Source: Candidatus Onthoplasma sp. (lineage in GTDB: Bacteria; Bacillota; Clostridia; Christensenellales; UBA1242). From it: DNA of 64,000 nucleotides. The stretch covers positions 17,816-81,815 of the forward strand of contig JAZUAD010000036.1 of NCBI GenBank assembly GCA_045637825.1, written 5' to 3'. The position numbers and the translations under genes were made by a program. Positions 11,834 through 27,068 of the stretch are shown here, one piece after another. Every line of letters begins with the position of its first letter. Within the stretch, counting starts at the first letter, position 1. The notes beneath the pieces were generated by a model. It saw nothing but the letters and a program-made list of their open reading frames with translations, was not told where the DNA came from and searched no databases.

Positions 11834-12628
11834 ATGACTAATCTAATGATTGATGGATTTACAATATTTGGTTTTCCAATCAAATTTTATGGCATAATTA
11901 TTGCTATGGCAATGTTGATAGGTGTTTTTTTAGTACAACATTTGGCTAAAAAACGAGGAATTAATCCTGATGATGTAATAATACTAGCAATATTGATTAT
12001 TCCATTAGCAATATTGGGTGCAAGGGCATATTATTGTATTTTTAGCGACACACATTATACCTTTGCTACATTTTGGAATATTCGCAAAGGCGGTTTAGCA
12101 ATATATGGTGGTATAATTGGAGGTATTGTAGCAATAGTATTGTTCTGCTTATATAAAAAAGATTTAAAATTAATTATAAAATTGTTTGATATTATAGTTC
12201 CAGCGCTTATTTTAGGTCAAGCAATAGGGCGTTGGGGCAATTTCTTTAATCAAGAAGCGTATGGTTACTTGGTTAGCAATCCTAAATGGCAATGGTTTCC
12301 ATTTGCAGTTAAAATAGAAACTTTTTCGGGATTTGAGTGGCATTTGGCAACTTTCTTTTATGAAAGTTTGTGGAATTTTATAGGATTTATAGTATTGTTA
12401 ATTGTATTTAAAAAATCTCAAAAAATAGGTACAACTACAGGAGTTTATTTAACTTATTACGGGCTTGGAAGATTGTGGATTGAGGGTTTAAGAACAGACT
12501 CGTTATACTGGGGCGTTTTACGTGTTTCTCAATGGCTGAGCGCGTTATTAATTGTTATAGGTTTGGCTATATTGGTCTATAATTATATTAACAAACGAAA
12601 GGATAAGACTTATGAACAAAAAAACTAG
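11834..12628 (+). CDS. lgt: Prolipoprotein diacylglyceryl transferase
   Basis: GRWGNFFNQEAYG signature, multi-TM, GGLAIYGGIIGG motif. Confidence 0.9.
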   Translation: MTNLMIDGFTIFGFPIKFYGIIIAMAMLIGVFLVQHLAKKRGINPDDVIILAILIIPLAILGARAYYCIFSDTHYTFATFWNIRKGGLAIYGGIIGGIVAIVLFCLYKKDLKLIIKLFDIIVPALILGQAIGRWGNFFNQEAYGYLVSNPKWQWFPFAVKIETFSGFEWHLATFFYESLWNFIGFIVLLIVFKKSQKIGTTTGVYLTYYGLGRLWIEGLRTDSLYWGVLRVSQWLSALLIVIGLAILVYNYINKRKDKTYEQKN

Positions 12629-17979: not shown

Positions 17980-18396
17980 ATGACAAAAGAAGAGTTTATT
18001 GACCAAATGTTTAAGTGGGTTACATACTATAAGGAAAAGTTGGAAGAGGCAGATATTTATCGTGTTCAACTTGATAAACATCTTATAGGCAATAATTCAA
18101 ACATCACTTTTAATCCGTTTTTAAAGTTTGATGAAAAGTATTTTAATATCAAACTTTTATCAAACCTTCAAGCGTTGGATATGGTGTTATATAAAAATTC
18201 AGATGCAAATGTTTATCAGATTAAAATGTTTATAATATGCAATCAGCAATTTAAAGTGCTTAATCAAGTGTTAAAACATAGTCCTTATATGGTGGAAGAA
18301 CTTAAAGAAAAAACTCATAGTCCTATGGATATTGCAATTGCTTATGCAAGATATTGCGAACTGCAAGATAGATATCAAAATACAACAAAACGTTAA
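17980..18396 (+). CDS. Hypothetical protein
   Basis: 138-aa ORF with AAAGGTGA SD and a consensus promoter. No recognisable motif. Confidence 0.6.
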   Translation: MTKEEFIDQMFKWVTYYKEKLEEADIYRVQLDKHLIGNNSNITFNPFLKFDEKYFNIKLLSNLQALDMVLYKNSDANVYQIKMFIICNQQFKVLNQVLKHSPYMVEELKEKTHSPMDIAIAYARYCELQDRYQNTTKR

Positions 18397-18514
18397 AATA
18401 TTGTTAATGTGGCTAACAAATAATAAAATCATACTTAAAACAAGTCAAATAACCAAACAATTAAAACGCATATTGTTTAGTAGGTTAACAAATATAAATA
18501 TAAGGAAAAATAAA

Positions 18515-18883
18515 ATGAATAAAACAGATTATTTACAAGATTATAGACAATTTTTAAATAACATATATATCGATATATTAGATAGTACATATGATGAAGT
18601 TATACGTGAGGCGGGATTTAAGCGCGAAGAATGTGTAAAGGGTATAGACGAAAAGGATTGGATGAATGCATACAACTTTATGTTTGTGCCTATGATGAAA
18701 GTTAAGAATATGATAAAAAATAATGGACAACCTTTTAATCCTGCAATAAAAGAGCATTTAATTTTTTTAAATAGAAAAATGAATATGGTAAAAGACGGAA
18801 TAGAATTAATTTTAACTAAAGAATTTGGAATTACTGTTGGTTGGGTAAATAAACAGACTGGTAAGTGTGAATTTGTATTATAA
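18515..18883 (+). CDS. Hypothetical protein
   Basis: ATG at 18515 (MNKTDYLQDY...) is preferred over the upstream extension at 18332, which overlaps the previous gene. No recognisable motif. Confidence 0.5.
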   Translation: MNKTDYLQDYRQFLNNIYIDILDSTYDEVIREAGFKREECVKGIDEKDWMNAYNFMFVPMMKVKNMIKNNGQPFNPAIKEHLIFLNRKMNMVKDGIELILTKEFGITVGWVNKQTGKCEFVL

Positions 18884-18888
18884 TAAAA

Positions 18889-18920
18889 AATACCGATTAA
18901 TTAATCATCGGTATTTTTTT
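18889..18920. terminator. Bidirectional rho-independent terminator
   Basis: ATACCGAT / ATCGGTAT stem with flanking A- and T-runs, between convergent genes. Confidence 0.7.
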
Positions 18921-18949
18921 GTATTCAAATATTTGATATATTAATCAAA

Positions 18950-21900
18950 CTAAACTCTTTTCATGCGGATTGTAATGTCATCGCCGCCAACTTGTGTTGT
19001 TTCTTCAGTATCGAAATCGGTTATGGTTGTAATTTCAGTTGCAAGTAATTCTGCTTTAATTTTGTCAGCGTAAACATTTAATACTTCTAACAAATCTTCA
19101 CTAGTAGTAGCAAATTCAACTTGAATTCTATCTGCCACATCAAAGTTTGCATTTTTACGCATTACTTGACAAGTACGGATAAGTTCACGAGATAAACCTT
19201 CAAGCATCAAATTCTTATCGATTGTGATATCAAGCACAACTGTAATTCCATCAACGTTAGCAATTACATAATCTTGTTTTGCTTTAGTTTGAGGTATGAA
19301 TAAGTCGCTATTTAGGTCATAACCGCAAATACTAACTGAACCAGCGTGGAAACCATTTACATAATTTTGCATTGTTGCATCATCACAATTTGATAATTCA
19401 TTTTTAACCTTTTGAACATCGCCTTTAAGCACTGCACCTGCTTTACGTAGGTCAATCATTAAATATTCATCATTAAATCTAGTTTGGTCACGTTCAACTA
19501 CGATATTTTTGATATTTAATTCATCTTTTAGTATGGTTTCATATAAGTCAACTGCGTTTTGCAAACTAGTATCGCCACAAATAAATAATGTTTTAAGTGG
19601 TTGTTTAACCTTAATTTGCTTTTCGTTACGCAAACGTCCAGCAAGTGCAATTACATCACGCATTAAGTCAGTTTGCTCGATTAGATTGTTGTTTTCGATT
19701 TCAACAAGGTTTGCACCAAAGGTTGTTAGCATTACACTTTCTTCTACATTTTTATCTAACTCACGCACTAGGTTTTGCCACAAATATTCGCTTAGGAATG
19801 GAGTGATAGGAGCAAGCACTATTGCAGTATTTTTAATTGCATAACTTAAAACGTAGTATGCGTTTAATTTGTCTGTTCCATTTTCGCCTTTCCAGAATCT
19901 ACGGCGGTTGATACGAATATACCAGTTAGATACTTCGTCAATAAACTTTTCAAATTCCTGAGTTACACCACCAAAGTTTGTTTCATCGTATGCTTTATCA
20001 CACGCATTAACAAATTCATTAGTACGTACAACAAGCCATTTATCACTAACATTTAAGTTATTTGTATCAAGTTTATAACCAGTTAAATCAGGATTGTCGA
20101 TATTTGCATAAGTGCCAAAGAATAGATAACTATTCCATAAATTTAATATCTTACGTCTTACTTCATCAATAGTCTCATAACCAAACTTAACGTCTGCAAT
20201 AAGTGGAGTGTTAACAAAGTTATAACGAACAAGGTCTGCACCGATATCTTTATAAACTGTGTCAAGAGGAATATTGTTAGGGCTAGATTTAGATAGTTTT
20301 TTACCATCTTGTGCTAGTAACATTGGTGTTCCCATTGCTTTTTTAAATGGTGCTTTTCCAGTTAATACTACGCTCATTAGTAGCATGCTGTAGAACCATA
20401 AACGAACTTGTTCTTTACCTTCAACAACTGCATTGGCAGGGAAGTTCTTTTGCCAAAATTCTTTGTCTTCAAAATACTTTTTAGTACTAAATGGAACAAT
20501 ACCAGCATCAAGCCAGCAGTCGCCAACGTGTTTAATACGTTTAACTGCTTTGCCACAACATGGACACTTGATTTCCACTTCATCAATATAAGGACGGTGT
20601 AGGTGAGGTAGGTTGTCCACTTTTTCAGGGTTAACTGCTAATGCTTTTAATTCTTCCTTGCTTCCAACAACAGTGACTTTACCACAATCACAAGGGTAGA
20701 ATGGAAGTGGCAAGCCATAATATCTAGGACGAGAAATTGACCAGTCTCCCATATTTGTCAACCAGTCTTTCATACGCTTGCCTAGGAATTCTGGGTTCCA
20801 CTCAACAGTTTCAGCTTGTTCAATCAACTTTGGACGGATATCATCAACCTTGATTACCCATTCACTAATCAAACGGAATAGTAAAGGATTTTTACATCTC
20901 CAGCAGTGAGGATAACGGTGAGTGTAGGAGTGATGATAGTATAATTTGTTACGTTTAGTCAATTCTTCAAATATTAAGTCCCTAGTTTCATCGCAATTTG
21001 CATTTAAGCCAGTTAAGAAACCAAAACCATCATAGAATATACCCGCTTCATCAATAGGCATAACTTGTTCAAGTCCTAATTGTACGCCTAAATCATAGTC
21101 TTCAGCACCACAACCAGGGGCGATATGCACCGCACCACAACCTTCAGTTGCGTCAACTGCGTCCCAAGCCACAATTTTATGTACAAATTGTTGTTTAGGA
21201 AGTTCTTCAAAACAACCTTCGTAAGTATATCCAACTAATTCGCTACCCTTAACGGTTTTAATTACACGTACAATATCTGCTTTTAATACTTTTAATGCAC
21301 TTTCGCACAAGATAATAGGCGATTTATCACTCTTAACTTCGCAGAAAGCATAATCAAGTTCTGGATTAACTGCGATTGCTACGTTACTAGAAAGTGTCCA
21401 AGGGGTAGTAGTCCAAACTAACATCTTAGCATCAATTTCATTGATAGGTAGTTTAAAGAATACTGCTTGACAAGTGTCGTTTTTGTAGGCATCAGCATCG
21501 CTCATTTCATGTTCACTTAAACTTGTGCCACAACGTGTACACCAAGGCATAGGGCGATATTTTTGACCAATCATCTTCTTTTCATCACATTTCTTTAAAA
21601 AGTGCCAAATTGCGGTGATGTTGCTATCAGCATTAGTGTAGTAACTATCGTCCCAGTTCATCCATTGGCCAAGGCGAACAGAACCTTCTGTAATCAATTT
21701 TGAATATTTGTCAACACGATTCATACAAGCATCAACAAAGTTGCCAATACCAAACTCTTCAATTTCCTTTTTGCTATTTATATTAAGTTCTTTTTCAACA
21801 CCAACTTCAACAGGCAGACCGTGAGCATCAAAGCCATTTTGATAGTGTTGGTCATAACCCTTTAGGGCGCGATATTTAATAGTGGCGTCTTTAAAAGTTC

Positions 21901-22084
21901 GTGCAAAGGCGTGGTGAAGTCCCATATTGTAGTTTGCAGTAATAGGACCATCAAGTAGGGTGTAATACTTACCAGTTTTCTTATTTTTTTCCTTTAATTT
22001 TTCGAAGATTGAGTTTTCTTGCCAAAACTTCAAGACTTCTTCTTCATTTTTAGGGAAATTAGGTATCCCTTGTTCTTTTCTCAT
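18950..22084 (-). CDS. ileS: Isoleucine--tRNA ligase (long, type-2-like form)
   Basis: 1044 aa. PITANYNMGLHHAFARTFKD carries the HIGH-class motif, KLSKS is the KMSKS loop, and cysteine clusters CWRC and CDCG...CPCCG are present. Confidence 0.95.
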   Translation of the reverse strand: MRKEQGIPNFPKNEEEVLKFWQENSIFEKLKEKNKKTGKYYTLLDGPITANYNMGLHHAFARTFKDATIKYRALKGYDQHYQNGFDAHGLPVEVGVEKELNINSKKEIEEFGIGNFVDACMNRVDKYSKLITEGSVRLGQWMNWDDSYYTNADSNITAIWHFLKKCDEKKMIGQKYRPMPWCTRCGTSLSEHEMSDADAYKNDTCQAVFFKLPINEIDAKMLVWTTTPWTLSSNVAIAVNPELDYAFCEVKSDKSPIILCESALKVLKADIVRVIKTVKGSELVGYTYEGCFEELPKQQFVHKIVAWDAVDATEGCGAVHIAPGCGAEDYDLGVQLGLEQVMPIDEAGIFYDGFGFLTGLNANCDETRDLIFEELTKRNKLYYHHSYTHRYPHCWRCKNPLLFRLISEWVIKVDDIRPKLIEQAETVEWNPEFLGKRMKDWLTNMGDWSISRPRYYGLPLPFYPCDCGKVTVVGSKEELKALAVNPEKVDNLPHLHRPYIDEVEIKCPCCGKAVKRIKHVGDCWLDAGIVPFSTKKYFEDKEFWQKNFPANAVVEGKEQVRLWFYSMLLMSVVLTGKAPFKKAMGTPMLLAQDGKKLSKSSPNNIPLDTVYKDIGADLVRYNFVNTPLIADVKFGYETIDEVRRKILNLWNSYLFFGTYANIDNPDLTGYKLDTNNLNVSDKWLVVRTNEFVNACDKAYDETNFGGVTQEFEKFIDEVSNWYIRINRRRFWKGENGTDKLNAYYVLSYAIKNTAIVLAPITPFLSEYLWQNLVRELDKNVEESVMLTTFGANLVEIENNNLIEQTDLMRDVIALAGRLRNEKQIKVKQPLKTLFICGDTSLQNAVDLYETILKDELNIKNIVVERDQTRFNDEYLMIDLRKAGAVLKGDVQKVKNELSNCDDATMQNYVNGFHAGSVSICGYDLNSDLFIPQTKAKQDYVIANVDGITVVLDITIDKNLMLEGLSRELIRTCQVMRKNANFDVADRIQVEFATTSEDLLEVLNVYADKIKAELLATEITTITDFDTEETTQVGGDDITIRMKRV

Positions 22085-22122
22085 AATAACTCCTTTAAAT
22101 TTAAGTAAAATGATTACTTAAT

Positions 22123-22152
22123 AAAAAACTACCATATACGCTATATGGTAGT
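22123..22152 (-). terminator. Leader (attenuator) terminator upstream of ileS
   Basis: The minus strand reads ACUACCAUAUA-GCG-UAUAUGGUAGU followed by UUUUUU, ending about 38 nt before the ileS ATG. The 5' arm can alternatively pair with ACGCUAUAUG (22177-22168). Confidence 0.75.
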
Positions 22153-22186
22153 CCTTGCAAACATTAACATATAGCGTAAGAGTTGC

Positions 22187-22234
22187 CTATGCGATAATAA
22201 TGTTAATTATAATATTTGCATTGATAGTTTTCAT
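22187..22234 (-). CDS. Putative Ile-rich leader peptide MKTINANIIINIIIA
   Basis: ATG AAA ACT ATC AAT GCA AAT ATT ATA ATT AAC ATT ATT ATC GCA TAG. Seven of 15 codons are Ile. It starts 9 nt after the -10 box (near-leaderless), and its stop lies 9 nt before the antiterminator 5' strand. Confidence 0.5.
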   Translation of the reverse strand: MKTINANIIINIIIA

Positions 22235-22243
22235 AATGCTATT

Positions 22244-22272
22244 ATTTTAGCACAATCAGTTGCTAGTGTCAA
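22244..22272 (-). promoter_or_regulatory. Sigma-A type promoter of the ileS leader
   Basis: Minus strand: TTGACA (22272-22267), 17-nt spacer, TAAAAT (22249-22244). Confidence 0.65.
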
Positions 22273-22301
22273 TAAATTTTAACAACTTTATAAAATTTAG
22301 A

Positions 22302-22916
22302 TTACACAGCAAAAGTGTCTTCGTGGTCTTTATGTAAATCGTTGCTTCCTTTCAACATTTTTTGAATATAAGTTTGATGTTCTTTTGTTAATTCGTTAAC
22401 ACTTTTTCTAATTTCAATTTTAGTATCAATTAGATTTTGTGTTATAGATGTTAACATTTTTTTAGTATGAGCGTTTAGATGAGGTGTGTTTGCTTGTTGT
22501 AAATTGTAAATAGCAACCTCAAGTGCAGATATTTGATGTTCCAAATTTGTTAAAGGTGCAAGTTCATTTTTATCTATAATATTTTTTTGCTGATTTAAAC
22601 CATTTTGGGTTTTTCTTTCAAATGGTCTAATTTTTAAACCTGTTGTTGTTTCCTCAATGGTAAAGGTTATAGGTTTGTCAAGTCCCTCTTGTGCTAAAAT
22701 ATTAATTTTTCCAGTAAATTTAATATTGCGATGAATAGTAGACAATCCTTCAACGTGCTTGTTTAAAGTTTCCTCAGTTGCGTGTTCATTGTAATAATTT
22801 CGTATAACTAACTTGCCATTTTTTATTCCAATAATAATAGTATCATAACAATTAGGATTAGTAATAATTAATGTTTCAAATTGGTCAAGAACTTCTAAAT
22901 TTTGATTTGCTTTCAT
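22302..22916 (-). CDS. Hypothetical protein (beta-rich N-terminus, coiled-coil C-terminus)
   Basis: 204-aa ORF, last gene of a tightly spaced four-gene operon. GGAGAAAA SD. No recognisable motif. Confidence 0.6.
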   Translation of the reverse strand: MKANQNLEVLDQFETLIITNPNCYDTIIIGIKNGKLVIRNYYNEHATEETLNKHVEGLSTIHRNIKFTGKINILAQEGLDKPITFTIEETTTGLKIRPFERKTQNGLNQQKNIIDKNELAPLTNLEHQISALEVAIYNLQQANTPHLNAHTKKMLTSITQNLIDTKIEIRKSVNELTKEHQTYIQKMLKGSNDLHKDHEDTFAV

Positions 22917-22925
22917 AATTTTCTC

Positions 22926-23342
22926 CTATACACTAAATTCATCTTCCATTAGGAAAGGTCTGCCTTCCACAATTGCAAAGTTTTGTGCCACTTGTTTAAT
23001 ATCGCCTTGCATATCTTCAACGATGCTGTCACAATCGGTTTCAAGTAAGTCAATCACATTTAGTGTGTCGCCACATTCTTCAATACAAATAGGGGCAATT
23101 GCCTCTTTATCGCGTTTAGCACGCAAATAAATTTCATCTTCAAATTCAACAATACGTATTTTTTTAGTATTTTCAACTGAATATCCCTTATTAAAGGCAA
23201 CTCGTTCAGCAGGCATATCTTCATAAAGAACAAATTGTAATTCCTCATTATAAATTTGAGCAGATATAACATCTTTTACATTTTCGCCTTTTATAACAAC
23301 AAAGTCGTTACTGCTAACCAATATAATTTTATCTTTTTCCAT
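22926..23342 (-). CDS. Hypothetical acidic protein
   Basis: 138-aa ORF with AAGGAGAAA SD. No recognisable motif. Confidence 0.6.
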   Translation of the reverse strand: MEKDKIILVSSNDFVVIKGENVKDVISAQIYNEELQFVLYEDMPAERVAFNKGYSVENTKKIRIVEFEDEIYLRAKRDKEAIAPICIEECGDTLNVIDLLETDCDSIVEDMQGDIKQVAQNFAIVEGRPFLMEDEFSV

Positions 23343-23352
23343 AAATTTCTCC

Positions 23353-23577
23353 TTATCTATTAAAGTTTGTATTATGATTTTTGGCGTCTTCTACAATGTT
23401 TTCTAGTACTTTTTCCAAATTTCTTTTAATAGTAGTTAAATCTTGCATAGTGTCATAAATATCTCTTGCTTGATGTGAATCGATTGTTTGCATATAAATG
23501 CGGTCTAATTTTCGTATATTGCTAGTTAGTAAAGATATTTCTTTTTCAAGAGTATGTGCTATTTGTTGTTTATCCAT
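23353..23577 (-). CDS. Hypothetical small helical protein
   Basis: 74-aa ORF with AGGAGAAAA SD and predicted coiled-coil character. Confidence 0.55.
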   Translation of the reverse strand: MDKQQIAHTLEKEISLLTSNIRKLDRIYMQTIDSHQARDIYDTMQDLTTIKRNLEKVLENIVEDAKNHNTNFNR

Positions 23578-23589
23578 AAAATTTTCTCC

Positions 23590-24270
23590 TTATTTTCTTG
23601 AAGCGATATAGTCTTCGCTAGTTTTTAATATGTTTATTTCGTTTGATATTTGTTGCAAATATTCGTACCAATCTTCTGGCGTTTTAAACTTTTGACCATT
23701 TAGAGCATTGTGTGCTTGATAGCAAAGCGATACTTCAAAAGGTTTATCGTATTTCAAACTTTGTCTAATAATGTGTTCGGTAGCGTCGCAGGGCTCCATA
23801 CCAACAATTAGGTCAAAGTTGGATATGTCTGTTCCAGTACTATATTCATCACAATAAAATGGCTTTTTGATTATTTGTTGAATTTTTCTTGGTTTAAGTT
23901 CATTGTCCTTAAGTCTAATTTTAGGGTCAATAGCGGTCACCTTAAAGCCACGTTTACCGAGTTCGGTAGATAAATTACACATTCTGCCCGCACCTACATC
24001 TAACACCTTGTTTGATGAATTATATTTTGTTATTAGGTGGCGGATAAAAGTTTGTGTTCTTGGTTTGTTTGTGATTAAATTTTCACTAACCAAAAAGTCA
24101 AAAACTTCATCGGCTATTGCATTGTCTTGCTTAAAAATATATGCTCTTAAATCCATTAAGAATTTATCTTTTTCAAAAGGAGTAAATCTTTCCGGATTAA
24201 TTCTTAAATATTCTTCTGCTTTTTTAAACATTATTAAATGGATTAAAGCGGGTGATGACTGATTTTGCAT
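23590..24270 (-). CDS. Rossmann-fold protein, SAM-dependent methyltransferase-like
   Basis: VLDVGAGRMCNLSTELGKRGFKVTAIDP (motif I plus an acidic residue at the end of beta-2) and LIVGMEPC (motif IV-like). ATG at 24270 with GGAGAAG SD. The ORF-track start at 24300 lies inside the predicted -10 region. Confidence 0.55.
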   Translation of the reverse strand: MQNQSSPALIHLIMFKKAEEYLRINPERFTPFEKDKFLMDLRAYIFKQDNAIADEVFDFLVSENLITNKPRTQTFIRHLITKYNSSNKVLDVGAGRMCNLSTELGKRGFKVTAIDPKIRLKDNELKPRKIQQIIKKPFYCDEYSTGTDISNFDLIVGMEPCDATEHIIRQSLKYDKPFEVSLCYQAHNALNGQKFKTPEDWYEYLQQISNEINILKTSEDYIASRK

Positions 24271-24407
24271 AAATATCTTCTCCGAACATAAATATAACAT
24301 AGTTTTTTATTGTTGACAAGGGGTTTTAAAAAAATTGCAATAAAAAAGATATGAACAAAGTCATATCTTGATTTAGTGAATAATGAAAAATAAAGGAAGC
24401 TTTCGAG

Positions 24408-25073
24408 TTATAGTTCCCAATCAATCGGTGTTACACCATTTTCAACTAGGAATGAATTACACTTGCTAAAATGTTTGCAACCAAACCAACCTTGATAAGC
24501 ACTTAGTGGACTAGGGTGAGGTGCGGTAAGTATTAGGTGATTAGGGTTATTTAGAATTTCAGTAAAGCCCTTTGCGTGACCGCCCCAAAGCATAAATACA
24601 ATAGGTTGGTTAAGTTGATTTACAATCTTAACAATCTCCTTAGTTATGGTTTGCCAACCGCATTTTGAGTGAGAGGTTGGTTGCCCTTGCACAACGGTAA
24701 GCGATGTGTTAAGTAGCAATACGCCTTGCTTTGCCCAACTATCAAGTTGAGTTTTACCACTCATACGTATACCCAAATCGGTGCTAATTTCCTTAAAAAT
24801 ATTAGTAAGAGATGGTTGTGGTGTGCCGTTAGCACAACTAAAGGCAAGACCGTCTGCTTGACCTAGTGTGTGGTATGGGTCTTGACCAATAATAACCACT
24901 TTAACTTTATCTAATGGTACATAATTTAAACTATTAAAAATCTTTTCCTTAGGAGGAAAAACGGTTTTTGTAGCATATTCTTGGTTTATAAATGCAAACA
25001 ACTTTTTTTTAAACTCAACATCTACTACCTGACTTAACTTTTCGCTCCAATCTTTATCTAATACGTAACTCAT
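24408..25073 (-). CDS. ung: Uracil-DNA glycosylase
   Basis: VVIIGQDPYH, GVLLLN and HPSPLSA motifs. Confidence 0.95.
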   Translation of the reverse strand: MSYVLDKDWSEKLSQVVDVEFKKKLFAFINQEYATKTVFPPKEKIFNSLNYVPLDKVKVVIIGQDPYHTLGQADGLAFSCANGTPQPSLTNIFKEISTDLGIRMSGKTQLDSWAKQGVLLLNTSLTVVQGQPTSHSKCGWQTITKEIVKIVNQLNQPIVFMLWGGHAKGFTEILNNPNHLILTAPHPSPLSAYQGWFGCKHFSKCNSFLVENGVTPIDWEL

Positions 25074-25079
25074 AATTTA

Positions 25080-25108
25080 ATAATAGCATATAACAAAAAC
25101 TTTGTAAA
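25080..25108 (-). promoter_or_regulatory. Promoter producing an apparently leaderless ung mRNA
   Basis: Minus strand: TTTACA (25108-25103), 17-nt spacer, TGcTATTAT, then 6 nt (TAAATT), then the ung ATG at 25073. No SD is present. Confidence 0.5.
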
Positions 25109-25148
25109 GTGAAACAAAATACAAATATTAAAAATAAAGGTCAATCTG

Positions 25149-26684
25149 CTATGATTGACCAGAGGGTATATTCTTTTTTCTTTTTAGTATATTTTTTAAC
25201 ATAATTAGTGGTGCGGTGTAGATATTAAACATTTGAATTAATATTAGGGTTAGTAGCATACTTAATCCGCCACCGATTATTCCAGAAATAAAGGCGGGTA
25301 GGAAGTGGTAGCATATATTTGATATAAAATGACCTATTAGTGAGGTTGGTACTAGTATTATTGCGTATCTAAATAGATTAAATAGAAGTTTGTAACTTAA
25401 GGTTGGGACTTCTTTTTTTATAGTTCTAAAGTTTAATATTGCAGTTATGCCCATAGATAGGAAAAATGCGACAATTACTGAGTTTATACCCATTATTGGT
25501 GTGAATACAAACAAACTTATAAATAATACTACTGAACCTATAATGTAATTTATAAACGATTTGGTTTCCAAACTTAAAGCATTCATAACACTGCTAGTTA
25601 TATTTGATATTACAATAGGCAAAATGCTAACTGCGGATAGTTGAAGATATATGCCGGCTTTAACATTGTTAAATAATACAATTCCTATAAGGTCTCCGAC
25701 AGAAATAAATAGTGGGATTAATAACATTGATAAGAATAATGAAGTGTTAATTGAATTTTCTATATTTTTACCGATTTCATCGTACTTTTTGCTTATTTTT
25801 AAGGTAGATATTTTAGGTACTAAAACCATACCTAGTGACCCTACTACAGATAGTGGAACGTATAGTAAAGGAAAGGTCATACCCATAAGAATACCATATT
25901 CGCTAATTGCTTGGCTGGAAGTGTATCCGATATTTATTAATAATATTGGTATTAAAGTTGCGGTTAATGGCTGGATTAAACTGGAGGCAATACGAACTCC
26001 AGTAATAGGGGACGAACTTTTGATTAATGTTAGGTATTGCCCTTTTTTAAACTTCAATCTACCGCCATCAATAAAGTATATTATCGCAACAAGGGTGGCG
26101 GATATTAGACAGGTGATTGAAAAGGTCTTTGCTGTTAGTTTGGTGGCTACAAATATATCCTGGATAGAATAAAGCATTATAAAAGTAATTATCAGTCGTA
26201 TTACCTGTTCAATCAGTTCGGTAAAACCAACCCAAAAGAAAGCATTTTTGCCCCACAAAGCACCACGAAAAATAGCATAAATCGAACTAAAAATAATGGC
26301 AGGACACATTAATAGCATTAACTCTATAACCAAAGGGTCTACAAATTTTATAAAAATACCTTGAAATAAGGCAATAATTGAAGTGCTAGCAATACTAATA
26401 ATCAAGGCAATAACTGTGGCGGAAGTAACTGTAATATTTTTTTTATCTATTTGATTAGTGTGGTAATAACTAGCACACATTTTAGCGGTAACAAGGGGTA
26501 GTCCACTGGCGACTAATGTCATAAATATTCCCATAATAGAGGCGGAAATTTGATAAATTCCTATGCCTTCCGCACCAAGTTTTCGGGATAAAAATATACG
26601 AAAAATAAAACCAAATAAACGTGTAATAACGGAAAATATGGTTATCATTGAAACTGTTTTAAAAATTGATTTAACTTCACTCAT
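25149..26684 (-). CDS. MOP-superfamily flippase (SpoVB / MurJ-like polysaccharide or lipid II flippase)
   Basis: About 14 TM helices; N-terminus SIFKTVSMITIFSVITRLFGFIFRIFLSRKLGAEGIGIYQ is typical of SpoVB/MurJ-like proteins. The start is uncertain (ATG 26684 or TTG 26705). Confidence 0.75.
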   Translation of the reverse strand: MSEVKSIFKTVSMITIFSVITRLFGFIFRIFLSRKLGAEGIGIYQISASIMGIFMTLVASGLPLVTAKMCASYYHTNQIDKKNITVTSATVIALIISIASTSIIALFQGIFIKFVDPLVIELMLLMCPAIIFSSIYAIFRGALWGKNAFFWVGFTELIEQVIRLIITFIMLYSIQDIFVATKLTAKTFSITCLISATLVAIIYFIDGGRLKFKKGQYLTLIKSSSPITGVRIASSLIQPLTATLIPILLINIGYTSSQAISEYGILMGMTFPLLYVPLSVVGSLGMVLVPKISTLKISKKYDEIGKNIENSINTSLFLSMLLIPLFISVGDLIGIVLFNNVKAGIYLQLSAVSILPIVISNITSSVMNALSLETKSFINYIIGSVVLFISLFVFTPIMGINSVIVAFFLSMGITAILNFRTIKKEVPTLSYKLLFNLFRYAIILVPTSLIGHFISNICYHFLPAFISGIIGGGLSMLLTLILIQMFNIYTAPLIMLKNILKRKKNIPSGQS

Positions 26685-26756
26685 AAATTTGCTACACTCT
26701 TTCAATTATGTATATAAGCAAGTGCTCAAATTTATACAATTTTCATATAAATTATT

Positions 26757-27068
26757 ATGAAAATATTGGAAAGTGATGATAAGAATTTTATATTGCAACG
26801 TTTAACTAAAGACGATAATTTAATTAACTTAGCACAAAAATTTAACGTTGATATCTGCAACATAATTAGAAACAATCCAAACATTGATTGTTATGAGGGT
26901 GAAGTGGTTAAAATTGTTTTAAGCAAAGTAAAATATCACATTGTTAAACCTATGCAAACACTAGAGGATATTGCGCAAATTTATAATACAACAGCGCAAA
27001 ACTTGATGTTATGTAATAAATTAATATCTAAAAGGATTTTTATAGGTCAAACATTAAAAATTTTATAG
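26757..27068 (+). CDS. Small protein with two LysM-like repeats
   Basis: YHIVKPMQTLEDIAQIYNTTAQNLMLCNKL...GQTLKI is LysM-like, and the N-terminal half has a weaker similar repeat. Confidence 0.6.
   Translation: MKILESDDKNFILQRLTKDDNLINLAQKFNVDICNIIRNNPNIDCYEGEVVKIVLSKVKYHIVKPMQTLEDIAQIYNTTAQNLMLCNKLISKRIFIGQTLKIL

Follow-up and report, generated by a model that had tools for sequence, protein, structure and literature searches.

How is ileS, the gene for isoleucyl-tRNA synthetase, controlled in a Firmicute that lacks the T-box riboswitch expected upstream of it? The question is raised by a 64-kb stretch of DNA from Candidatus Onthoplasma, a member of the Christensenellales with a reduced genome (hereafter the window, meaning the whole stretch analysed, with positions counted from its first letter; features lie on its minus strand unless stated otherwise). 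Onthoplasma is placed in the family UBA1242, whose genomes are below 1 Mb and lack amino-acid biosynthesis (PMC12306168). The regulated gene occupies 18950-22084, with its ATG at 22084 and a Shine-Dalgarno (SD) sequence, AAAGGAG, at 22090-22096; its product of 1044 amino acids matches TIGR00392 at 730 bits against a cut-off of 621 bits in a profile search and is of the long MupA/MupB-like (type 2) form. The original prediction placed an isoleucine-rich leader peptide and a terminator/antiterminator pair upstream of this gene and read them as ribosome-mediated attenuation. That reading is supported with refinements, every refutation test named with it that could be run having come out in its favour: the element is very probably a transcription attenuator of the ribosome-mediated, leader-peptide type, matching ileS transcription to how much charged tRNA-Ile is available.

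Because the same position is held by an Ile-specific T-box in relatives, a sensor of tRNA-Ile charging is to be expected at the ileS of the window. The orthologous leaders of these relatives match the T-box model at 67-87 bits (E 1e-12 to 1e-17) and carry an AUC-A specifier, corresponding to Ile, so the search could have detected such an element in the window as well. Within 21900-22500, the T-box model (RF00230) gave no hit even at E<=10, in agreement with the T-box absence first suspected, and neither a Stem I with its specifier loop nor a T-box sequence was recovered by the covariance model. A cmscan of the same interval with all 4227 Rfam families returned nothing resembling a T-box or a leader family at E<=10, the leader matching no curated family, amino-acid leader and attenuator families included. 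Over the whole window, Rfam 15 yielded no match at gathering score, nor any tRNA, riboswitch, small RNA or other family at E<=0.01, and the leaders of three relatives (L011, L013 and L017) likewise gave nothing at gathering score. The candidate identification of the window leader as a T-box or another known RNA family was therefore rejected. At seven loci (L014, L027, L029, L053, L057, L065 and L079), the ileS T-boxes of the clade score 40-87 bits against the Rfam gathering score of 93, and would consequently be missed by standard annotation.

What the window does contain, ahead of ileS, is a short leader open reading frame (ORF) at 22234-22187, reading ATG AAA ACT ATC AAT GCA AAT ATT ATA ATT AAC ATT ATT ATC GCA TAG. 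It encodes MKTINANIIINIIIA and ends in a TAG stop codon at 22189-22187; seven of its 15 codons specify Ile, including two runs of three at 22213-22205 and 22201-22193, exactly as first described. By chance, only 0.12 mini-ORFs with at least 7 Ile in 14 codons would be expected in the window, and among the 809 ATG-initiated mini-ORFs of 8-35 codons in the whole window, the leader ORF is the only one with two III runs.

Between this ORF and ileS lies a predicted intrinsic terminator (22154-22123), consisting of an 11-bp stem (13 bp with G-U pairs), a GCG loop and a U6 tract, with a folding energy of -13.7 to -15.8 kcal/mol. The hairpin proper, ACUACCAUAUA-GCG-UAUAUGGUAGU, spans 22152-22128, its stem extendable by two G-U pairs, and the U6 tract occupies 22128-22123, its first U closing the stem; the succession of hairpin, U run, ileS SD and ATG was confirmed by sequence. 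The leader folds more stably than dinucleotide shuffles (z-score -3.2), with the hairpin as the dominant element. Upstream of the hairpin, region 2, (U)ACGCUAUAUG at 22178-22168, is the 5' strand of the antiterminator and the exact complement of region 3, CAUAUAGCGU(A) at 22147-22137, which overlaps the 5' arm, the loop and the first 3'-arm bases of the terminator. The core of region 2, ACGCUAUAUG at 22177-22168, begins nine nucleotides (nt) past the stop codon and pairs perfectly with CAUAUAGCGU at 22147-22138, so the 10-bp complementarity originally claimed stands. The antiterminator thus comprises 10-11 bp, and its overlap with the terminator 5' arm and loop makes the two structures mutually exclusive. 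One measurement needed correction: the gap between region 2 and the hairpin, given as 20 nt, is actually 15 nt, the 20 nt being the loop of the antiterminator.

The 1:2 pairing proposed at the outset, between AUUAACAU (22207-22200) within the Ile codons and AUGUUAAU (22170-22163), does exist, but region 1 is larger, composite and stronger than this helix. In minimum free energy (MFE) folds, region 1a, UGCAAAUAUUA at 22220-22210, pairs with region 2b, UAAUGUUUGCA at 22166-22156, and region 1c, GCAUAGGC at 22192-22185, which holds the stop codon, pairs with GCU-AUAUGU in region 2 (22175-22167). Region 1b, AUUAACAUUA at 22207-22198, lies within the Ile codons and pairs with 22170-22160, forming in the model when region 1a is masked; part of it (22204-22198) is able to pair with 22166-22160. 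Region 1 accordingly overlaps the ORF and its Ile codons and pairs with region 2, and the three helices of the window are balanced, at -12.8 (1:2), -13.1 (2:3) and -13.7 kcal/mol (3:4). The presence of these sequence elements and the mutual exclusivity of terminator and antiterminator are established.

By itself, the evidence from the window is suggestive; it is the comparative data that carry the case. A scan for IleS proteins in species-representative genomes provided 79 loci, the close ones belonging to Candidatus Onthoplasma and to Christensenellales/Clostridia metagenome-assembled genomes from the guts of animals and humans, at an IleS identity of 50-95%. Of about 74 related ileS loci, at least 44 have an equivalent leader, so that the Ile-run mini-ORF, whose conservation had been proposed as a check, is retained where the rest of the peptide and leader has diverged. 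At 42 loci the Ile-rich mini-ORF directly follows a promoter upstream of ileS, and these 42 leaders form the set analysed in detail, with L098, L062 and a disrupted copy at L044 being additional.

The leader peptides fall into four classes: class A, represented by MKTINANIIINIIIA (the window and 8 others), class B (for example MGILSFIFAVIIISKIILPIKL), class C (for example MNKNAIIISNIIISSSN) and class D (for example MFKAIIIRNIIINI). Essentially, these classes have the Ile runs alone in common, while within each class ORF lengths vary by whole codons. Isoleucine makes up 40% of residues in the family peptides, an II pair occurs in 42/42 and two separate runs in 36/42, and ATH triplets account for 37.5% of codons in frame, as opposed to 2.2% and 7.0% in the two other frames. 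Relative to the window ORF, class A orthologues show 11 synonymous and 2 non-synonymous changes, mostly synonymous swaps of Ile codons, and every class A leader keeps the ORF start MKTI(N/I). The frame-specific enrichment is therefore established, and an origin of the Ile codons as a side effect of AT-richness was rejected on the grounds of frame specificity, conservation across diverged peptides and the window-wide scan.

In classes B, C and D, region 1, (C/G)AGCAAAAU, lies inside the ORF between both Ile runs in MFE folds and pairs with region 2, GCGUUUUGCUG, located just 3' of the stop codon. Nested within this 1:2 pairing is a small hairpin, P1, with the stop codon always inside it; P1 is present in 34/34 B/C/D leaders (mean z -3.4) with at least six unrelated stem sequences, and region 1c of the window is analogous to it. 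Region 2, GCGUUUUGCUG, also pairs with region 3, CAGCAAACGC, which forms the 5' arm and loop of the terminator, and regions 3:4 read UGUCAGC/GCUGGCA followed by at least five U, typically U6-U7. Mean energies are -10.7 kcal/mol for 1:2 with P1, -12.1 for 2:3 and -11.7 for 3:4. Class A follows the same design with a composite region 1: the 1a:2b complementarity is kept in all of its leaders (UGCAAACAU with AUGUUUGCA), and region 2 is invariant although the flanking linkers vary.

Covariation was assessed on a MAFFT alignment of the 34 diverged B/C/D leaders. For the 1:2 and 3:4 helices, 87.0% of cells are paired, compared with 32-50% in slid controls, and the covariation score is 0.212 against a shuffled mean of 0.169; for the 2:3 antiterminator the corresponding values are 87.6% versus 26-54% and 0.173 versus 0.102, and in both cases 0/500 shuffles reach the observed score. 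The 8-bp core of the 1:2 helix (columns 40-47 with 83-90) has 77.9% of its cells paired. Compensatory changes include GCGU../..ACGC to GCGA../..UCGC and GCUG/CAGC to GCUA/UGGC, while the 2:3 pair 84-134 appears as UA in 19 leaders, UG in 6, AU in 4, GC in 2 and GU in 1. The helices 2:3 and 3:4 singled out in the original prediction, and 1:2 in addition, are thus kept with compensatory changes in the diverged classes, and their conservation and covariation in relatives are established.

These comparisons also bear on the output of the system. An Ile-rich ORF could sense Ile-tRNA and act through Rho-dependent termination, mRNA stability or translational coupling, in a manner likened to some leaderless cysteine short ORFs of mycobacteria, and both the modest, AT-rich stems (-12 to -16 kcal/mol) and a terminator-to-ileS distance of 100-300 nt in several relatives would suit such an output. 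A hairpin followed by at least five U is nevertheless present in 42/42 leaders, and the alternative helix specifically sequesters the 5' arm of that hairpin and covaries with it, which leaves an output other than intrinsic termination very improbable.

Equally, the mini-ORF might encode a small functional peptide, acting at the membrane or toxin-like in class B, with a terminator of its own and with ileS expressed by constitutive partial read-through. Class B peptides resemble a hydrophobic helix with a conserved C-terminal ILPIK(L), and two relatives, L024 and L025, bear a second upstream class-B-like ORF lacking Ile runs and hairpin. Peptide sequence is, however, unconserved between classes, the window peptide of 15 residues is not membrane-like, and the element always stands directly upstream of ileS or, at L062, of an ileS operon, alternating with an Ile T-box at the same position. 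Moreover, in class B the conserved ILP/stop segment is also where the arms of P1 fall (CUAC with GUAG), so that an RNA constraint accounts for its conservation. A free-standing role for the peptide is accordingly the most improbable of the explanations weighed here, and attenuation by a translating ribosome is retained.

For such attenuation the leader ORF must be transcribed and translated. The promoter originally read as TTGACA-17 nt-TAAAAT was confirmed at 22272-22244: its -35 hexamer, TTGACA, occupies 22272-22267, and an extended -10, TGcTAAAAT, follows at 22252-22244 after a 17-nt spacer. In a scan of 18000-27000 this is the top promoter-like site, with 11/12 matches plus the TG. Its -10 ends nine nt before the ATG at 22234, giving a predicted 5' untranslated region of about 1-3 nt, and the ORF has no ribosome-binding site. 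A near-consensus TTGAC(A/T)-17-TAnnnT promoter stands 5' of the ORF in 41/42 related leaders, with the -10 ending 6 nt before the ATG in 22, 7 nt in 5, 9 nt in 11 and 11-12 nt in 3, and the mini-ORF ATG lacks a ribosome-binding site. Given this spacing of 6-12 nt, the A of the AUG would fall at, or a few nt past, the predicted start, and the leader ORF would be leaderless; the near-leaderless start without an SD, at first entered as a caveat, is hence a family trait. Between the -10 and the start codon, class A shares ...AATAAWAGCATTATG with classes B/C/D.

Ordinary genes of the window point in the same direction. Among ORFs of at least 100 amino acids, a scan for leaderless geometry found three, namely ung (ATG 25073; 25108-25073), whose leaderless appearance had already been remarked upon and is borne out, and ORFs at 11834 (+) and 16658 (-). 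All three have a promoter with at least 10/12 matches, a -10 ending 6-7 nt before the ATG and no ribosome-binding site, and leaderless mRNAs therefore seem to be in use for normal genes here. The alternative candidate in which the hairpin is the terminator of the upstream gene and ileS has a separate promoter was rejected, as the promoter sits between that gene and the hairpin; no promoter-like site between the hairpin and ileS was found in the 18000-27000 scan.

The influence of the ribosome on fold choice was modelled with constrained partition functions on the window leader; the outcome holds for three footprint sizes. Expressed as predicted probabilities of terminator and antiterminator, P(T)/P(AT), the leader gives 0.97/0.00 both with no ribosome and with a ribosome at the stop codon, and shifts to 0.04/0.96 with a ribosome at I10, 0.03/0.97 at N11, 0.01/0.98 at I12 and 0.13/0.86 at I13. 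The model thus switches as expected, and 8/8 class A leaders are predicted to shift in the same direction. In class B, the modelled P(terminator) is 0.89 with no ribosome, 0.49 at its minimum over Ile stalls and 0.94 at the stop codon; the corresponding values are 0.96, 0.09 and 0.96 in class C, and 0.70, 0.01 and 0.49 in class D. With a footprint from A-15 to A+12, a ribosome stalled at an Ile codon hides, for most of these codons, 60-100% of region 1 in classes B, C and D, and it never touches region 2. Once at the stop codon, the ribosome overlaps region 2 by 6-7 nt in classes B and C, but in most class D leaders not at all. In the window, the 5' end of the ORF, AAACUAUCA (22230-22222), is in addition complementary to the 3' arm of the terminator, UGGUAGUUU (22134-22126), and this '0:4' helix forms behind the stalled ribosome in the model, strongly stabilising the antiterminated state.

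Of the trp-like logic originally invoked, one half therefore fares well in the model, an Ile stall freeing region 2 for the antiterminator, and the other does not, as in the window a ribosome that has arrived at the stop codon has almost no contact with region 2. The modelling suggests that termination under Ile-replete conditions may here depend on 1a:2b re-forming once the ribosome has passed, and not on region 2 being masked. Since equilibrium modelling is indecisive, the decision would have to be kinetic, as in trp, with 1:2 forming first unless a ribosome occupies region 1. P1 together with the U-rich stretch could conceivably serve as a pause signal that synchronises polymerase and ribosome.

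From the transcription start and leaderless translation, through stalling and the kinetic order of folding, to termination or read-through itself, we infer the following course of events. Transcription would start at, or 1-3 nt before, the AUG of the 15-codon ORF, which would be translated without a ribosome-binding site as a leaderless mRNA. With plentiful Ile-tRNA, the ribosome would pass the Ile codons and reach the stop; 22220-22198 and 22192-22185, exposed behind it or after its release, would pair with 22178-22156 (1:2), and the free region 3 would form the terminator (22154-22126 plus U6), halting RNA polymerase before ileS. With scarce Ile-tRNA, the ribosome would stall with its A site on an Ile codon of either run and cover region 1, so that region 2 (22178-22168) could pair with region 3 (22147-22137) once the latter is made; with the terminator 5' arm sequestered, polymerase would read through into ileS.

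Several observations weigh against this account. In nascent RNA ending at region 3, equilibrium folding predicts the antiterminator whatever the ribosome position; masking the whole ORF gives a P(T)/P(AT) of only 0.64/0.34; and a ribosome at the stop codon leaves region 2 unmasked in classes A and D. The sharpness of the switch in the window leans partly on the predicted '0:4' helix, and when everything 5' of the ribosome is masked, the shift at I13 is smaller, from 0.97/0.00 to 0.25/0.74, so that the size of the modelled switch depends on the assumptions made. The helices of class A are nearly invariant and its linkers vary in sequence and length, which amounts to conservation and not to covariation; the covariation support consequently derives from classes B/C/D, which share the class A design but have weak sequence similarity to it. 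A covariance model of B/C/D finds all 9 class A leaders in the right place and strand, yet at only 23-28 bits (E 0.1-0.6), and common ancestry of class A with B/C/D is for that reason plausible at most. A rival promoter-like site, ATGAAA-17-TATAAT with 10/12 matches, lies within the leader ORF itself (22234-22206); its TATAAT is built of Ile codons, it is not conserved in the other classes, and it is probably incidental, yet it is the sole feature able to give a start downstream of the ATG. Furthermore, Bacillus subtilis is reported to transcribe and translate without coupling of the two processes, a situation that would disfavour such a mechanism in Firmicutes. Candidatus Onthoplasma itself is known from metagenome-assembled genomes only.

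Some of these points would equally suit a switch that is real but set by an RNA-binding protein, a small molecule or a tRNA recognised in a manner unlike that of a T-box, the Ile-rich ORF being incidental or modulatory. The RNA helices are well conserved, the antiterminator needs no ribosome to fold in nascent RNA at equilibrium, and RNA or protein sensors are usual in Firmicutes. Against this, nothing is common to all four peptide classes except their in-frame runs of Ile, located on or near region 1, the position of the start codon relative to the promoter is conserved, length differences within classes are whole codons, and neither a conserved unpaired ligand- or protein-binding motif nor an Rfam match is apparent. 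A sensor other than the ribosome is thus very improbable, and the leader-peptide attenuator remains the preferred reading.

Set beside known systems, the leader most closely recalls the enterobacterial trp, his, leu, thr, ilvGMEDA and ilvBN attenuators, with which it shares a short ORF of cognate codons, the 1:2/2:3/3:4 logic, an intrinsic terminator, helix energies of similar size and a kinetic outcome. In contrast to these, its target is a synthetase gene and not a biosynthetic operon, its peptide is rich in Ile only where ilv leaders mix Ile, Leu and Val, its ORF stands without a ribosome-binding site at or next to the predicted start, and its host is a Firmicute; nor does it resemble any Rfam leader family in sequence or by covariance model. 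In Escherichia coli, the synthetase operon pheST is controlled by the pheM leader peptide, rich in the cognate amino acid and followed by a terminator. Compared on the basis of its textbook description and its mention in PMC1262725, that system differs in amino acid, in phylum and in its ribosome-binding-site-dependent initiation. The T-boxes of Firmicute ileS genes agree with the window leader in gene, position, signal (tRNA-Ile charging) and terminator/antiterminator output; in them, Stem I and the T-box sequence recognise uncharged tRNA directly, and the window leader has neither element.

Precedents for a leader peptide in place of a T-box in Firmicutes exist for hisZ/hisS paralogues in bacilli (PMC2965389), for His leaders in Peptostreptococcaceae, among some Clostridia, and in Erysipelotrichales (PMC9413887), and for the Leu-rich attenuator of S. 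aureus ilv-leu (PMC5794164); they concern other amino acids, genes and lineages, and none is reported for ileS or described as leaderless. A 2005 survey recorded classical attenuation in no Firmicute synthetase gene (PMC1262725). In mycobacteria, leaderless polycysteine short ORFs are described as sensing cysteine and attenuating downstream genes (bioRxiv 10.1101/834739); they share leaderless runs of a single codon with the window but belong to Actinobacteria, respond to cysteine and have biosynthetic targets, and the abstract does not describe their output as a classical 1:2/2:3/3:4 terminator switch. In Caulobacter crescentus, an 'ileS leader CDS', CCNA_03934, is a translated small ORF upstream of ileS, mentioned as a control construct only; alongside trpS, ileS would there be a further synthetase gene under leader-peptide control (PMC4117421). 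By this description alone, it resembles the translated small ORF predicted in the window, in an Alphaproteobacterium. A literature search, which left out most subscription journals, turned up no account of ileS being controlled by an Ile leader peptide in a Firmicute. The leaders reported here are therefore an undescribed family of classical leader-peptide attenuators whose mechanism is itself already known; uncommon are the leaderless start, the restriction to Ile, the synthetase target, the stop-codon hairpin nested in 1:2 and the interchange with T-boxes within one Firmicute family.

The distribution of the family extends beyond the detailed set. The metagenome pattern scan for the ORF start returned 65 loci and one true extra leader, L098, an additional class A copy whose RNA part is identical. 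The class B leader of L062 (1760-2503) was found with the covariance model built from diverged leaders, and this candidate attenuator precedes a two-gene operon of a histidine-phosphatase-family gene (RHG motif), inserted or retained between leader and ileS, and ileS itself. At L044 (~1940-2500) the leader copy is disrupted, insertions splitting the ORF from region 2. In L044, L006, L008, L009, L017, L019 and L020, insertions that contain internal repeats and measure ~135-300 nt lie between the terminator and ileS (an example motif is gtcaccctgagcgtag / gtcatgttgagcgaagtc), and these insertions look like small mobile repeat elements. In the window, past the U tract of the terminator and ahead of the ileS ribosome-binding site, lies an 8-bp AU-rich hairpin, UUAAGUAA-UCAUU-UUACUUAA (22121-22101), which is kept with small changes in most class A leaders but not in L003 and L005. 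Upstream of the Ile leader, L024 (~2205-2310) and the equivalent stretch of L025 contain a second promoter and mini-ORF (MTVYQFVLLIVMLGWMFLPIKF in L024), class-B-like with a ...LPIK(F/L) end and without Ile runs, stop-codon hairpin or obvious terminator; this ORF may be a duplicate in decay, or its peptide may have a function of its own. No further similar attenuator was found in the window, nor is there a second aminoacyl-tRNA synthetase gene among its 20 annotated ORFs.

T-box leaders precede ileS at ~17 loci, 7 of them recognised by covariance model and the others by motif. Other related loci have no leader, and in several of these ileS abuts the upstream gene. The more distant L046, L047 and L048 have neither T-box nor mini-ORF in the last ~90 nt before ileS, and show a short hairpin and U run beginning at the promoter -10/start region. 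On a single-gene, distance-based neighbour-joining tree of IleS, T-box leaders occupy basal and sister branches, class A forms one clade adjoining a T-box clade, and classes B/C/D form a large clade adjoining another, with the T-box pair L014/L065 nested inside; several lineages have lost any leader. Judged by this arrangement, the T-box would be the ancestral state, later displaced by the leader peptide, and at least one additional swap or transfer would have taken place. That T-box and leaderless Ile attenuator replaced each other more than once in UBA1242/Onthoplasma is a tentative idea, for now rather doubtful.

For the biology of these gut bacteria, the attenuator accounts for the missing T-box at ileS and adds a sizeable family of cis-regulatory leaders, unrecognised by current annotation (Rfam 15); standard pipelines overlook both the sub-threshold T-boxes (67-87 bits versus 93) and the leaderless mini-ORFs of the clade. 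The same gene in sister lineages, under direct tRNA sensing or ribosome stalling, constitutes a natural experiment, useful for asking when each sensor is favoured, for example in tiny, AT-rich, amino-acid-auxotrophic genomes. As the ORF is leaderless and the host a Firmicute, the family also bears on the extent of transcription-translation coupling there. Should repeated swapping prove true, both sensor types would be freely interchangeable modules over short evolutionary distances, and tight ribosome-polymerase synchrony, perhaps via a pause at the stop-codon hairpin on a leaderless transcript, would operate in a Firmicute lineage for which uncoupled transcription and translation are the expected norm.

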